64,000 nt of DNA from an uncultured delta proteobacterium (GTDB lineage Bacteria > Desulfobacterota > Binatia > UBA9968), in the NCBI GenBank assembly GCA_963840855.1, contig CAWJBB010000034.1, forward strand, positions 1 through 64,000. Direction: 5' to 3'. The notes beneath the pieces were generated by a model. The model was not told where the DNA came from. It was given only the letters and a program-made list of their open reading frames with translations, and did no database searches. Made by a program: the position numbers and the translations under genes. Of the stretch, positions 45,119-50,049 are shown one piece after another; position 1 is the stretch's first letter, and each line of letters begins with the position of its first letter.

Positions 45119-45308
45119 ATCCCCTCGACGCGAGCATCGAACTGTTTATTGATTGGTCTTCACGTCAAAGGTTCCTTCACCCTTTCAGACCGTGTCGCAA
45201 TCCGCGCAAACGCCTTGATGTCATGCTGAGCGAAGCGAAGCATCTCGCATTTTCAAGCTGTAACGAAGCCGGTTGGGAACGCAATTCATTTCCGCTATAA
45301 CTGCGTCC

Positions 45309-46004
45309 ATGCGCTTCGAATCCCGCCTCATCCGCGGCACACTCGTTCAGCGTTACAAACGATTTCTCGCCGACGTGCGTTTAGCCAACGGCGAAATCGT
45401 CACCGCGCACTGCACGAACACGGGCAGCATGATGGGCTGCAGGGAGTCCGGCAGCGCGGTTTATCTCTCGCGCTGTGATAACCCGAATCGCAAGCTAGCC
45501 TATACCTGGGAGCTCATCCGCGTGAACAAGATCTGGGTAGGAATTAACACGATGCATCCTAATCGTCTGGTCGCCCACGCCATTGAAATGGGGCTCATTC
45601 AAGAGTTGCGCGGGTTCGATTCCATTCGCCGGGAAGTGGTGACGCGTCCAGGCACGCGGCTCGACCTCTGTCTCGAGGGCAAGAATGGCTCCTGCTTCGT
45701 CGAAGTGAAGAATGTCACCATGGCCGTCGACGGCGCTGCGGCGTTTCCCGACGCCGTCAGCGAGCGGGGCACCAGGCACTTGAAAGAACTCATGCGTCTC
45801 AAGCGTAGAGGCCACCGCGCCGCCGTTGTTTTCGTGATTCAGAGAGAAGACTGCGGGGCATTTCGCCCCGCCGATGAAATCGACCAAGAATACGGACGCT
45901 GGCTGCGCCGCGCTATCAAAGCCGGCGTCGAAGCCCTTCCCTATCGCGCTAAGGTCACGCCGCGAGAGATCGTTCTCACGGAGCGGCTCGAGACGAGATT
46001 GTGA
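45309..46004 (+). CDS. sfsA: Sugar fermentation stimulation protein A (DNA/RNA nuclease SfsA)
   Basis: RYKRFLAD, HCTNTGSM, VEVKNVT, FPDAVSERG..HL. Confidence 0.93.
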   Translation: MRFESRLIRGTLVQRYKRFLADVRLANGEIVTAHCTNTGSMMGCRESGSAVYLSRCDNPNRKLAYTWELIRVNKIWVGINTMHPNRLVAHAIEMGLIQELRGFDSIRREVVTRPGTRLDLCLEGKNGSCFVEVKNVTMAVDGAAAFPDAVSERGTRHLKELMRLKRRGHRAAVVFVIQREDCGAFRPADEIDQEYGRWLRRAIKAGVEALPYRAKVTPREIVLTERLETRL

Positions 46005-46044
46005 ACGAAAATTATTCATTTGCGCAAACCAGGAGGAATTCACA

Positions 46045-46830
46045 ATGAAACTCACCGGGCAGGTGGCGATTATCGTCGGCGGCGCCCGCGGTATCGGCGC
46101 AGCGATCGCGCATACTTTTTCTCAGGAGGGCGCGAGTCTGGTCCTGGTAGACTTGGAAAAAATGAAGCGTGAGCTCGATGCGGTCGCTCAGGCAATTAGC
46201 CAGAAAGGCGGCAAAGCCGTCTCGCTCATCGCCGACTGCACAGACGATCAGCAAGTCAACGCGATGGTCAACGAAACTGTGCGGCGCTTTGGAAAAATCG
46301 ATGTTTTCGTCAACAGCGCCGGTTTTCGCGGGCCGCTGGTGCCGGTGCAAGACATCACGGAGAAACAGTGGGATGACGTGCACAATGTCAATCTCAAGCT
46401 GGCGTTTCTTTGCTGCAGGGCGGTGTTGAAAGTGATGATCAAACAGAAAAGCGGCAGCATCGTCAGCATCTCCGGCACCGCGGGCAAAGAAGGCATGGCT
46501 CTGCGCGGTTCGCTGTGCGCGGCAAAATGGGGTCTTTTAGGGTTGACTCAGACGATTGCTAAAGAAGCCGGGCCTTACGGCGTAAGAGCCAATGTCATCT
46601 GCCCGGGCGGGATGGACGAACCGGACTTGAGAGAAATGTACGCCGAAAGAGCCAAGGGGTTGGGAATGGAATTTTCCCAACTAGAAAAGCAAGTCTTGGA
46701 ACTCACGCCTTTGCGCAAGTACGCCCAGCACGACGAAGTCGCCAAGGCTGCGCTGTTTCTCGCCTCCAGCGACTCCTCGCACACAACGGGTGAATCGCTC
46801 AACGTTTCCGGCGGCCGACTAATGAATTAG
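46045..46830 (+). CDS. SDR-family oxidoreductase-like protein, catalytic Tyr absent
   Basis: AGGAGG RBS, GGARGIG, NSAG, LCAAK in place of YxxxK. Confidence 0.88.
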   Translation: MKLTGQVAIIVGGARGIGAAIAHTFSQEGASLVLVDLEKMKRELDAVAQAISQKGGKAVSLIADCTDDQQVNAMVNETVRRFGKIDVFVNSAGFRGPLVPVQDITEKQWDDVHNVNLKLAFLCCRAVLKVMIKQKSGSIVSISGTAGKEGMALRGSLCAAKWGLLGLTQTIAKEAGPYGVRANVICPGGMDEPDLREMYAERAKGLGMEFSQLEKQVLELTPLRKYAQHDEVAKAALFLASSDSSHTTGESLNVSGGRLMN

Positions 46831-46842
46831 ATGGCTCGGGCT

Positions 46843-46955
46843 GTTTCTGGTTTCGAGTTCCGGGTTTCGGGTTAAACTCAAGACGCGCATTTATCGTGAT
46901 CGTGTCCGTGAAACGTGACCGTGAAATCCGAACGAGCACGAACCACGAACACGAA
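46843..46955. repeat. Short tandem repeats between convergent genes
   Basis: GTTTC(T/G)(G/A) heptamers and (NNCGTG)n / (CACGAN)n hexamers in inverted orientation. Confidence 0.5.
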
Positions 46956-47011
46956 TTTGAGCGAGACAATCGAGCGCAACGAAGCAGGTGAGGCATTTTT
47001 GGACAGCCTGG

Positions 47012-47785
47012 CTATTCCCACAAGCCGTCTGGCAAAGGCAAGCCGGCAAGATCTTCGGCGTTGAGCCGCCCGTCGGGTTCGATGGCGAAGCGCTCCAGCA
47101 CGGCGATCAACTGCCGCGTGTGCTGCGCCGAGTGCCAAGTGGACCGCTCCAATAGCTGATGCATGGGCGGCGTACCGTAGAAGGTCCTTACCGTCTGCGC
47201 GCAGGACTTATCATCGAGCCGCATCCACCAGGCCTCCAGCCGCTCTATGATACTCTCGCCGTATTCAGCGATCTGCGCTCCCGTGGTGCAGGCGCCCTCG
47301 GCGGGAGGGACGTTCGCGTTACTCACCCAGTATTCGATGTCGTCGATGGCCGTCTCGAGGAACGCTTCCCCAATGCGAAAAATATGATGGCCCATGAGCC
47401 TGATCGAGCGGTCGCGGTTGTCGATCACACGCTCGCCAAGCCGCTGGTCGGGAATTTGCCGGATGTAACGCTGCGCGGCGCACAATACGTTTTTCCACTT
47501 CACCAACAGCGTCGGCGGCGGCAACGGTGTGTGCCCGCTGCCTTGCAAGCCGACGAATTCCGCGACGTCATCGAGATTCTGGCAGAAGACAAACTGCTCG
47601 CCTTTGGCGAGCACTGGCACCGTCTGCACTCCGAGTTTTAGCAATCGATCTTGCCCGCCGGCGTCATTCAACACGTCGACGGGAATGAATTCGATGCCTT
47701 TCTGCGAAAGAAACTCTTTCGTTTTTAAGCAACTGCTTCAACCCGGCTGGGTGAACAACACAAATTGATTCGCGGCGTTTTCCAT
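47012..47785 (-). CDS. Selenoprotein: glutaredoxin-like UxxC domain fused to a DinB-like domain (257 aa, Sec16)
   Basis: GGAGG + ATG 47785; FTQPG-TGA-SSC-LKTKEFL..GI.F..VDV..TVPV in frame with the 47012-47674 ORF; DinB His motifs GHH and WHSAQH. Confidence 0.85.
47705..47721 (-). promoter_or_regulatory. Putative bacterial SECIS hairpin
   Basis: CGAAAGA-GTT-TCTTTCG on the mRNA, stem starting 16 nt after the UGA, G as the first loop base. Confidence 0.6.
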
Positions 47786-47861
47786 AGCATCCTCCGTCGA
47801 GCGGATAATCGAATCCGATTTGATGATGGCTCTGTACGAGCCCCGTGCCTCCCCAATTTAC

Positions 47862-47887
47862 GGGCGACCACGTAGGGTCGCCCCTAC
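47862..47887. repeat. GTAG-type REP
   Basis: GGGCGACC-ACGTAG-GGTCGCCCCTAC. Confidence 0.65.
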
Positions 47888-47913
47888 GAGTATCAACCAA
47901 TTCACCCGCTGGA

Positions 47914-48894
47914 TCAAGAAAGATAACCGCGCTCGCGCCAGAACCGTTCGGCGGCGGGATGCAGCGGAATATCGAGCGGTCCATCCGCGGTATCGCGGCA
48001 CATGCGGTCCAGAGGCAGAGGCCCTGGTTCTTGCCAGGCGATCACGTCCTTCCTCGTCTCCAGAGCAGCGCAGATTGACGTCACAATCGTATCCGCGACA
48101 TTCGCGTGGGTATAGACGGTGAAACCGCTGAAATCCAGCGACGGCACGTCGGCCGGTAGTTTAGGATAATTTGCTTGGGAAATTACCGCGCGGCGAAATC
48201 CGAGCCCTTCCAACCGCGTCAACATTGCTTCATCCAGCGGTAGGATGCGAATTCCGGACCCAGCGGCGTCATTGACCCAGGAGCGCACCGCTTCGTCGAT
48301 GATCATGTCCACTTCGCCGCGCTGCGCTGCCCCAAGCCGGTTCGGGTTATTGGGCAACCCGGGGTCGTAGCGCACCTGTCCGCCCCAGGACACGATATCG
48401 TCGAGGGACAAATCCGCCGCCGAAAGCACTTCCTTCACGACCACATGCAGTGAGTGATCCATTTGCCCGCGCATCGATACCCGCAGCGGGTAGCGCCGCG
48501 CGCGAACCTCATGCAACGATTGCAATCCGGTTTTTTCAGACACAGCAAATGCCAACTGGTCCGGCGATGGGATGACGGTGATCGCCCGAAGTGGAACGGC
48601 TGTCTTGAATGGCCCGGTGCCGCGAACTGCCAAGGGCAGCAGGCCTGCGGGGTTGATGATCGCCGCCTGGACTTCGCCGCGCGCTACCTCCTCGATCGCC
48701 GCGGGACCGTCGCTGCCGAAGAGACAAACGGACCACTTATCCGCCCCTTGCTCGCGCAGACTGATGCGCGCCTGGCGGTAAGGCCAACTACGTTGATCAA
48801 CCAACTCGGAAGCGACTTCTAAAACGAGTCGCGAGCGAATTGTGTCCCGCCCCACTGACCGACTTTTTGTGTCACTCGTTGATGTTTTCACCAC
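47914..48894 (-). CDS. TAXI-like periplasmic-binding-protein fold protein with no signal peptide
   Basis: C-terminal IPLHPAAERFWRERG typical of TAXI; hydrophilic N-terminus. Confidence 0.75.
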   Translation of the reverse strand: MVKTSTSDTKSRSVGRDTIRSRLVLEVASELVDQRSWPYRQARISLREQGADKWSVCLFGSDGPAAIEEVARGEVQAAIINPAGLLPLAVRGTGPFKTAVPLRAITVIPSPDQLAFAVSEKTGLQSLHEVRARRYPLRVSMRGQMDHSLHVVVKEVLSAADLSLDDIVSWGGQVRYDPGLPNNPNRLGAAQRGEVDMIIDEAVRSWVNDAAGSGIRILPLDEAMLTRLEGLGFRRAVISQANYPKLPADVPSLDFSGFTVYTHANVADTIVTSICAALETRKDVIAWQEPGPLPLDRMCRDTADGPLDIPLHPAAERFWRERGYLS

Positions 48895-48954
48895 TGGAGT
48901 CTCCTTAACCGCAACTCAGACCTGTAATGAGATTTATCTTCCAAAAATTTCTGA

Positions 48955-50049
48955 CTAAGAGAAGGTCAATATGCCCCTGCCAAGAATCCGCCCATGTTCC
49001 AGATCGTCGACGGCCACGTTAATCTGATCCAGCGCGTAGCGATTCGTCACCAGCTCATTCAAATTCAGCTTGCCGTCGCGGTACCAGCGAATAAAGAGTG
49101 GAAAGTCACGGTCAGGACGGCAGTCGCCACCGCTGGTGCGCGTAAAGGAGCGGCTGCCGGCGAACAAGCTCGTATCCAGAATTGCCTTCGCTCCCGGTGG
49201 CGTCAGGCCGATCAGCAATGCTGTACCGCCCCGGTTGAGGCCGGAGTGCCCCACTCTGACGGCGCGCAGGATTTGTTCCTGGGTTTGCGGCAAACCCACG
49301 GCATCGATGGCATAGTCAACGCCGCCGCCGGTTAGTTCTTGAATCGATTTGACCGCGTCCGCCTTCCGCCCGTTCACGGTGTGGGTAGCGCCGAAGCGCC
49401 GGGCGAAGGCAAGTTTCTCCTCGATGACATCCACGGCGATGACCGGGTGCGCATCGACGATGGCAGCCGCCGCGATGGCGCAAAGCCCGATGCCGCCGGC
49501 GCCGAAAACCGCCACCGACTGACCCGCTCTCACTTGCAGCGTGTTGATGATGGCGCCGGCTCCGGTCATGACAGCGCATCCGACGATGGCCGTAACATCG
49601 GTCGGCATATCCTTCGGCAGCGGTACTACAACGCGCTCCTGCGCCAGCGCGTATTCCGCCCAAGTCGCGGCCGAGTGCATGACCTCTTTGCCTTTCCACG
49701 CGGCGGTGTACTGCGCGCGGTCGTTCAGAGCATGAGCCACGAGCGGCTGCGTGGTCGTCGAACTGTCGCGATCGACCCAGGTCGTAATCACGTGGTCGCC
49801 TTCTTTGACATGCTTGACGTCGCGTCCTTTCGCCGCTACTACCCCGGTCGATTCATGACCCAAAAGCGCCGGTAGACGATGGCCGGGCCGGGGCGGCCGC
49901 CCCATGCTGTGCAGTTGCGAGTGACAAACGCCGCTGGAAAACAGTTTAACCAACACCTGATCGGCCCCGGGGTCAGGGAACTCGACTTCGTCCACGACCA
50001 GAGGTTTGTTGGGTTCTACGAAGATCGCCGCTCGGCCTTTAACACCCAT
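48955..50049 (-). CDS. Zn-dependent (MDR) alcohol dehydrogenase lacking the structural 4-Cys site
   Basis: GVCHS, GHE, GCAVMTG, GAGGIG. Confidence 0.9.
   Translation of the reverse strand: MGVKGRAAIFVEPNKPLVVDEVEFPDPGADQVLVKLFSSGVCHSQLHSMGRPPRPGHRLPALLGHESTGVVAAKGRDVKHVKEGDHVITTWVDRDSSTTTQPLVAHALNDRAQYTAAWKGKEVMHSAATWAEYALAQERVVVPLPKDMPTDVTAIVGCAVMTGAGAIINTLQVRAGQSVAVFGAGGIGLCAIAAAAIVDAHPVIAVDVIEEKLAFARRFGATHTVNGRKADAVKSIQELTGGGVDYAIDAVGLPQTQEQILRAVRVGHSGLNRGGTALLIGLTPPGAKAILDTSLFAGSRSFTRTSGGDCRPDRDFPLFIRWYRDGKLNLNELVTNRYALDQINVAVDDLEHGRILGRGILTFS

Follow-up and report, generated by a model that had tools for sequence, protein, structure and literature searches.

A probable selenoprotein joining a glutaredoxin to a DinB-type domain in an uncultured Binatia bacterium

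We examined a 64,000-nucleotide stretch of DNA (hereafter the window) from an uncultured delta proteobacterium (GTDB lineage Bacteria; Desulfobacterota; Binatia; UBA9968), corresponding to positions 1 to 64,000 of contig CAWJBB010000034.1 in assembly GCA_963840855.1. We conclude that the interval 47012-47785 on its minus strand is very probably a genuine selenoprotein gene, in which a hairpin directs insertion of selenocysteine (Sec) at codon 16 of a two-domain product. A preliminary description of the locus, made from the sequence alone, had proposed a hidden selenoprotein in which a glutaredoxin is fused to a DinB thiol-transferase-like domain. The frame on which that proposal was based, running upstream through one TGA to an ATG with a GGAGG ribosome-binding site, is indeed present, and is made up of the following elements.

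47012-47785, minus strand: full coding sequence, by translation; 257 codons plus a TAG stop (47012-47014), with the ATG at 47783-47785
47791-47795, minus strand: Shine-Dalgarno sequence GGAGG, 5 nt ahead of the ATG, read off the sequence
47738-47740, minus strand: TGA codon 16, read here as selenocysteine; position 1 of a U-S-S-C redox motif (47729-47740)

Codon 16 is the sole in-frame TGA of the 257-codon frame, and the predicted product begins MENAANQFVLFTQPG-U-SSC-LKTKEFL. A standard table-11 listing of open reading frames (ORFs) yields a 220-aa ORF at the same locus. The TGA falls, as had been described, on the first Cys position of a glutaredoxin CxxC motif (USSC, residues 16-19), and the sequence TVPV follows downstream at residues 55-58; the DinB-type His motifs GHH and HSAQH noted in the same description were located at residues 132-134 and 218-222, respectively. 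An upstream 326-aa ORF in the window terminates with TGA, and the use of this codon as an ordinary stop in a neighbouring gene rules out an alternative genetic code as the explanation for its presence here.

The TGA is conserved among relatives of the gene. In a set of 61 related genomes, searched with stop codons read through, exactly one TGA was found in each of 12 full-length close orthologues (66-100% identity, window included), and the same holds for every one of the 13 rows from another fusion subfamily, at ~30% identity. The TGA corresponded to the first residue of a UxxC motif in 18/18 translated loci (FTQPGUSSC or YRPGUFTC), and in the same 18 loci the N-terminus, including the peptide ahead of the TGA, was kept in frame. 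Two of the genomes, G009 and G015, are counted in the related-genome tallies (for the TGA, for the Sec-specific tRNA and for the hairpin pattern described below), and G015 is among the 18 translated loci; dropping both alters no conclusion. We also scanned public genomes (one genome per species, 185,579 species) with an 8-row alignment, which recovered at least 588 relatives, and kept the best 80. Among those best 80 loci, 40 contained TGA at the position in question, 36 contained a Cys codon (TGY) and four (L084, L090, L093 and L110) could not be parsed by motif.

The preliminary description had looked to homologues with Cys aligned at the TGA, and such homologues are plentiful. Besides the 36 public loci, an alignment of 45 rows (A1, comprising 44 full-length Cys-form homologues and the query with C entered for U) pairs PGCSSC with PGUSSC, with C16 and C19 each at least 90% conserved, and a CxxC motif was present at the N-terminus of 53 of the best 150 protein-library representatives. 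Many of the remaining library representatives begin just past the CxxC position (for example MRTKEFLS or MKEFLS). A larger database returned 3712 matches at E <=0.001; the 120 best are all 200-238 aa in length, and each of the 14 sequences inspected among them begins downstream of the TGA. Database proteins that are short and begin past a TGA in this way are typical of selenoproteins whose genes have been miscalled.

Immediately downstream of the TGA, the sequence is predicted to form a selenocysteine insertion sequence (SECIS) element.

47705-47721, minus strand: SECIS upper stem-loop CGAAAGA-GUU-UCUUUCG, in codons (T)KEFLS; the whole element spans ~47690-47740

This hairpin of 7 bp, with a GUU loop, begins exactly 16 nt past the UGA; its existence had been pointed out at the outset, and the present comparison adds that it is specific to the TGA-bearing forms. 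Bacterial SECIS elements are described as having a loop of 3-9 nt, a stem of 4-16 bp, a G in the first two loop positions, a UGA-to-loop distance of 16-37 nt and a minimum free energy no higher than -7.5 kcal/mol (PMC13188914, Fig. 2 legend). The hairpin lies within each of the ranges given in that legend, with a GUU loop, 7 bp, G in first position, a UGA-to-loop distance of 23 nt and a free energy of -10.8 kcal/mol; a 76-nt fold gave z = -2.16 relative to shuffled sequences.

All seven pairs were formed in 40/40 Sec forms and in 0/36 Cys forms (in which 2-5 pairs are formed each), yet the Cys forms encode the same xKEFLx peptide as the Sec forms. Across the Sec forms the hairpin falls within the codons for (T/A)KEFLS. 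The difference lies in the choice of codons, as follows.

Codon TTT: 47/47 Sec forms; 7/34 Cys forms
Codon CTT: 47/47 Sec forms; 2/34 Cys forms
Codon AAA: 45/47 Sec forms; 1/34 Cys forms
Codon GAG: 47/47 Sec forms; 25/34 Cys forms
Codon TCG: 47/47 Sec forms; Cys forms not compared (the residue varies)

The CTT codon makes up only 11% of the Leu codons of neighbouring genes. An exact pattern consisting of the TGA, 16 nt and the hairpin occurred 35 times, in 26 of the 61 related genomes, and a reversed control pattern occurred 0 times, which places the association beyond chance. Relatives also contain stand-alone Sec-glutaredoxin genes (~78 aa, STGUASCH(S/T)AKEFLS) with an identical arrangement of UGA, 16 nt and hairpin, and we therefore regard the UxxC motif and its SECIS as a shared module. 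An extra pair, 25-43, was formed in 12/47 Sec forms. Two of the stand-alone Sec-glutaredoxins (L135:1381-2100 in genome G017 and L129:1381-2100 in genome G041) each have, immediately after them, a small ORF that contains four CxxC pairs and resembles a zinc ribbon.

The genome encodes most of the machinery for selenocysteine insertion. Of the genes selA, selB, selC and selD, which the preliminary description had named as a check on its proposal, selA (616 bits), selB and selD were found side by side on one contig (C1), and selC was not found in the assembly, which is 94% complete. The selD gene (383 bits; L021:9491-10579, minus strand) encodes U within KAAGUAAKLGP (a GUAAK motif), and its product is thus itself a selenoprotein. 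The selB gene, which adjoins selA, is in two adjacent pieces that result from an apparent frameshift (L021:11977-11990). The extra base responsible, L021:11985, is absent from the contigs of 3/3 soil metagenome runs that cover it (three studies, each at a depth of <5), and we therefore believe that the frameshift is most likely an error of this assembly. In RNA runs, <0.10 of the words sampled from the selB region were present. A Sec-specific tRNA was detected at 64 bits or more in 21/31 relatives, including congener G002.

Two further observations concern the same genome. A formate dehydrogenase alpha gene, fdhA, at C40:300397-303685 matches as three adjacent pieces, the first of which contains one in-frame TGA; it is likely a third selenoprotein gene of the genome, and its division into three pieces probably reflects more indel errors of the assembly. 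In the spacer between selA and selB (L021:12575-12691), ~115 nt match one Rfam miRNA model on both strands, with E values of 0.065 and 0.087 that are far under the gathering score; the pair of matches suggests a long, nearly perfect inverted repeat.

Sequence profiles and a structural model both divide the predicted protein into two domains, with the following features.

47543-47761, minus strand: glutaredoxin-like (NrdH/YruB-type) domain, residues ~9-81, from Pfam and fold matches
47615-47623, minus strand: cis-Pro motif T55-V56-P57
47060-47530, minus strand: DinB/YfiT-type four-helix-bundle domain, residues ~86-242, from VIA-align, Foldseek and family Pfam matches
47384-47386, minus strand: His134, predicted first metal ligand; at least 90% conserved in A1, invariant in A5
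47120-47134, minus strand: His218-x3-His222 within ERSTWHSAQHTRQL, predicted second and third metal ligands
47015-47050, minus strand: conserved C-terminal tail LAGLPLPDGLWE; L249 invariant, and G248, P250 and P252 at least 90% conserved (A1)

The Pfam Glutaredoxin model (PF00462) matched residues 9-66 at 46.5 bits (cut-off 22.9), and was matched by 44/45 family members. The DinB_2 model (PF12867) was matched by 36/45 family members (best E 2.8e-8) and the DinB model (PF05163) by 4/45. An AlphaFold model of the protein (ma2969f80e73f) was predicted with high confidence (pLDDT 96.1, pTM 0.92). When residues 86-242 of this model were compared with known structures using VIA-align, the top 9 rows were all DinB-type chains (Z 12.8-15.2), the best of which, 6iz2, aligned at Z 15.2 with a root-mean-square deviation (rmsd) of 2.4 Å over 143/144 residues; Foldseek gave a probability of 1.00 and a TMt of 0.82 for the same entry. 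Lower scores were obtained for other proteins with the DinB fold, including the M. tuberculosis mycothiol S-transferase (8f5v, Z 12.3) and BstA (5wk0, Z 9.9). The N-terminal domain (residues 5-81) matched 3zij (BC3987) at Z 12.8, the Clostridium Sec-glutaredoxin cGrx1 (7c10), which we take to derive from a natural selenoprotein, at Z 11.8 (rmsd 1.9 Å over 75 residues, 32% identity), and NrdH at Z 11.0. A profile of the whole family, searched against the Protein Data Bank (PDB), found 7c10 at E 1e-17 and 6iz2 at E 1.5e-4.

As modelled, the division is clear: the N-terminal domain is predicted to be a glutaredoxin, and the C-terminal domain a DinB/YfiT four-helix bundle with a conserved His triad. 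These results bear out the fusion as originally proposed. Within the C-terminal motif H222, R224 and Q225 are invariant in A1, and conservation reaches at least 90% at E213, R214, W217, H218 and Q221. Judged from these sequences, H134, H218 and H222 may be placed to hold a divalent metal; S-transferases of the DinB superfamily bind metal through conserved histidines, in a His-triad site (PMC10950700). Comparison with existing profile models, which had been suggested as a measure of novelty, indicated that none of 17 listed NCBIfam families (including YruB TIGR02196, Uxx-star NF041212 and NrdH TIGR02194) matches the protein at its cut-off, the best score being 37.2 bits against 88.55.

We can propose how such a protein might be made and might work. 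Translation would begin at the ATG at 47785, and the UGA at codon 16 would be decoded as Sec because the 17-nt hairpin, 16 nt past the UGA, would act as a bacterial SECIS and bring in SelB together with Sec-tRNA(Sec). The resulting product of 257 residues would consist of a thioredoxin-fold N-terminal domain, with U16-S-S-C19 and cis-Pro57, a short Gly/Pro linker and the DinB/YfiT bundle. The ligand bound and activated by the DinB domain would be either a thiol conjugate or a thiol of low molecular weight, for which glutathione is the likeliest candidate in these Gram-negative lineages; Sec16 would then attack an S-S or S-X bond, Cys19 would resolve the selenenyl-sulfide formed by Sec16, and the oxidised centre would be re-reduced by glutathione or by thioredoxin reductase. 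Glutaredoxin relatives of the NrdH type are reduced by thioredoxin reductase. We offer this cycle, from thiol binding by the DinB domain through attack by Sec16 and resolution by Cys19 to recycling, as a tentative scheme drawn by analogy. The formation of a thiol conjugate followed by its reductive resolution, as the preliminary description envisaged, is plausible in view of the known roles of both domain families.

Genes adjacent to the fusion are varied. In the window, an NMT1-like solute-binding protein and a Zn-dependent dehydrogenase are encoded upstream on the same strand (47914-50049, minus strand), and a short-chain dehydrogenase/reductase (SDR) and SfsA are encoded downstream in convergent orientation (45273-46830, plus strand); congener G002 (L042) has the same arrangement of neighbours. 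Recurrent neighbours elsewhere are NMT1-like binding proteins, MmgE/PrpD, SDR proteins and amidohydrolases, all of which belong to families common in such genomes. An MnmA-type tRNA 2-thiouridylase is encoded upstream, on the same strand, in eight Burkholderiales Sec loci (the L060-L067 group). A predicted S-adenosylmethionine-dependent methyltransferase with an Rv2258c-like winged helix-turn-helix domain adjoins up to 12 Cys loci (for example L079), and is downstream or run-on in most of these. Both adjacencies may represent lineage synteny rather than a functional link.

A number of results weigh against the interpretation of this gene as a hairpin-directed selenoprotein with an S-transferase-like domain. 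Chief among these is the lack of a match for selC. The best Rfam score for a Sec-specific tRNA was 43 bits against a cut-off of 47 (150/901 candidates scored); ARAGORN reported no such tRNA among the 40 tRNAs that it found in the assembly; and neither a motif scan of the assembly nor a blastn search of it with the congener's tRNA-Sec located one. For the hairpin, scanning 46500-48300 against Rfam at E values up to 10 returned two chance matches and no SECIS family, and covariation provided no support, with six core pairs invariant and one containing G-U in 2/47 of the Sec forms. With a stem that is essentially invariant, such a test carries no information. We also considered a lower helix and set it aside as unsupported, in that 41% of its cells pair, a value within that of shuffled sequences. 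For the C-terminal domain, the window protein itself scores 22.2 bits with DinB_2, just under the cut-off of 24.8, a weak sequence signal, and PDB sequence searches with this domain alone (as a single sequence and as a 20-row profile) gave chance matches only, to DNA polymerase II and designed helical repeats. The DinB assignment is made on the basis of the whole-family profile, Pfam and fold, rather than the sequence search with the C-terminal domain. Finally, no family-wide shared neighbour was found by ORF clustering across 76 loci or by Pfam analysis of representatives and 35 flanking ORFs at 18 Binatia-type loci, and because the gene neighbours vary, the genomic context supports no particular substrate.

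Of the alternatives that we considered, the one that fares best accepts that the gene encodes a selenoprotein and assigns it a different role, such as the handling of metals, metalloids or selenium, redox sensing, or service as a dedicated reductant for a partner enzyme. Sec-glutaredoxin is the dedicated reductant for Sec-MsrA in Clostridium. Most proteins with the DinB fold have no known activity, and the same fold serves isomerases (2nsg, Z 12.5 with VIA-align) as well as the Fe-dependent enzymes EgtB, OvsA and SenA, which form C-S or C-Se bonds and whose DinB domains matched at Z 9.0-10.8. The profile of the N-terminal domain also touches Spx/ArsC-type proteins, and the MnmA gene upstream of eight Sec loci and the Rv2258c-like methyltransferase gene downstream of up to 12 Cys loci could be taken to hint at such a role. 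Those neighbours, however, are confined to small groups of closely related loci, with none shared across the family, and the closest characterised enzymes with the DinB fold are the thiol S-transferases 8f5v and 5wk0 (PMC10950700). We consider a different role of this kind a possibility to be kept in mind, on a par with the thiol-transfer cycle outlined above.

A second alternative holds that the TGA is a true stop, that the product is a DinB-type protein of 220-238 residues translated from a downstream start (such as the GTG at 47674), and that the 15 codons ahead of the TGA either encode a leader peptide or encode nothing. This is just the view that gene callers take of the family, as the lengths of the 120 best database matches (200-238 aa) and the 220-aa ORF of the table-11 listing illustrate, and the failure to find selC in the assembly is in keeping with it. 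Against this, the FVLFTQPG peptide, the ATG and the ribosome-binding site are kept in frame in 18/18 loci, and the Cys homologues are full length. A later start would also deprive the glutaredoxin fold, modelled at a pLDDT of 96, of its redox motif and its first beta-strand, and would leave the Sec-specific hairpin without a role. We therefore judge a true stop to be very improbable. The weakest alternative treats this copy as a pseudogene, its TGA having arisen through an error of sequencing or assembly or through a recent nonsense mutation in a Cys codon. It might appeal to the indel errors of the assembly (one extra base in selB, and fdhA in three pieces), but it is hardly credible given that those errors are indels and not substitutions, that the TGA is present in 40 independent public loci from metagenome-assembled genomes (MAGs) and in 24 further related-genome rows, and that the same hairpin always accompanies it.

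The Sec and Cys forms differ in distribution. Sec forms occur in MAGs labelled as Binatia/Deltaproteobacteria and as Burkholderiales/Betaproteobacteria, and Cys forms in Burkholderiales and Pseudomonas lini. A quick unrooted tree comprised 125 rows (47 Sec, 73 Cys and 5 without a label), leaving out the four unparsed loci and the duplicate loci L023-L034. On this tree the Sec label requires at least 3 changes, and the window gene is placed in an 18-row Sec clade (support 100) that is nested among Burkholderiales Sec forms. The copies in eight records (L046, L050, L058, L063, L065, L068, L083 and L097), whose labels include Chloroflexota, Udaeobacter, Bordetella, Chitinophaga pinensis, Streptomycetaceae, Enterobacteriaceae and Clostridia, cluster tightly with Binatia or Burkholderiales copies; the labels or binning of these eight MAG records look unreliable.

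The relationship of the fusion to known proteins can be summarised as follows. The UxxC position and the KEFLS helix are common to the fusion and the Sec-glutaredoxin family, which is listed as experimentally verified in Table 1 of PMC13188914. The fusion differs from members of that family in that the glutaredoxin accounts for no more than the N-terminal third of the 257 residues, with a DinB domain attached, and in that its sequence shows no evident GG-x-DD motif of the classic glutathione-binding type. With the DinB/YfiT superfamily (DR0053, 6iz2; YfiT, 1rxq; BstA, 5wk0; and the mycothiol S-transferase, 8f5v) it shares the four-helix bundle, and its three conserved His residues may correspond to the His-triad metal site described for those proteins (PMC10950700). 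In the literature that we searched, no selenoprotein and no covalently attached redoxin has been described for the superfamily. The Cys-form fusions from Burkholderiales MAGs and Pseudomonas lini have the same architecture at 30-46% identity and share the ERxTWHxAQHxRQL and GLPxP motifs with the Sec forms; they differ from the window gene in having Cys for Sec (PGCSSC for PGUSSC) and in being without the hairpin.

Canonical glutathione S-transferases (GSTs) and proteins of the E. coli Grx2 type are built to the same plan, in which a thiol site on an N-terminal thioredoxin fold precedes a domain made entirely of helices. Alignment of the whole chain to GSTs gave Z 8-9 with an rmsd of 5-7 Å, and a Foldseek TM score of ~0.3; DinB is by far the better match for the helical domain. 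The likeness to GSTs appears to be one of analogy of design, and not of membership.

Sec-glutaredoxin is already known, and it is the fusion to DinB that appears to be new. An inventory of 119 selenoprotein families (2026; PMC13188914), as given in its Table 1, contains no DinB fusion, and a literature search returned no relevant paper joining selenoproteins or selenocysteine with DinB, YfiT or maleylpyruvate isomerase. A word search of the deep-Sep and BSepDB papers, their supplements and database aside, found no mention of DinB or Grx; the fusion could be filed under 'Grx' in the deep-Sep supplements or the BSepDB database. Source records call the Cys forms 'glutaredoxin' or 'hypothetical protein' and give the Sec forms in truncated versions. 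By analogy with the characterised members of both families, the protein might represent a self-contained GST-like enzyme assembled from unrelated parts, in which a thiol conjugate formed or bound by a metal-dependent DinB domain is resolved in cis by the covalently attached Sec-glutaredoxin, and might then be the first DinB/S-transferase-like selenoprotein; we put this idea forward with reserve. The UxxC motif and its SECIS would constitute a portable N-terminal module, found in stand-alone Sec-glutaredoxin genes and in two fusion subfamilies that are ~30% identical.

The 17-nt hairpin and the KEFLS peptide are locked together, and present a clean case of constraint on a coding sequence at the level of both protein and RNA. 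The combination of UGA, 16 nt and hairpin also makes a very specific search pattern. If the reading of this gene as a selenoprotein is true, the fusion family is plentiful among the Binatia and Burkholderiales of soils, and nearly all of its members are annotated as truncated hypothetical proteins; database entries for the family appear to be miscalled in their thousands, and a dedicated profile would mend these and add to the selenoproteomes of both soil groups. The fusion would also link selenocysteine to the DinB/S-transferase-like superfamily, most members of which have no known substrate, and the natural Sec and Cys forms of one fusion would offer a ready comparison of what selenocysteine brings to an enzyme.

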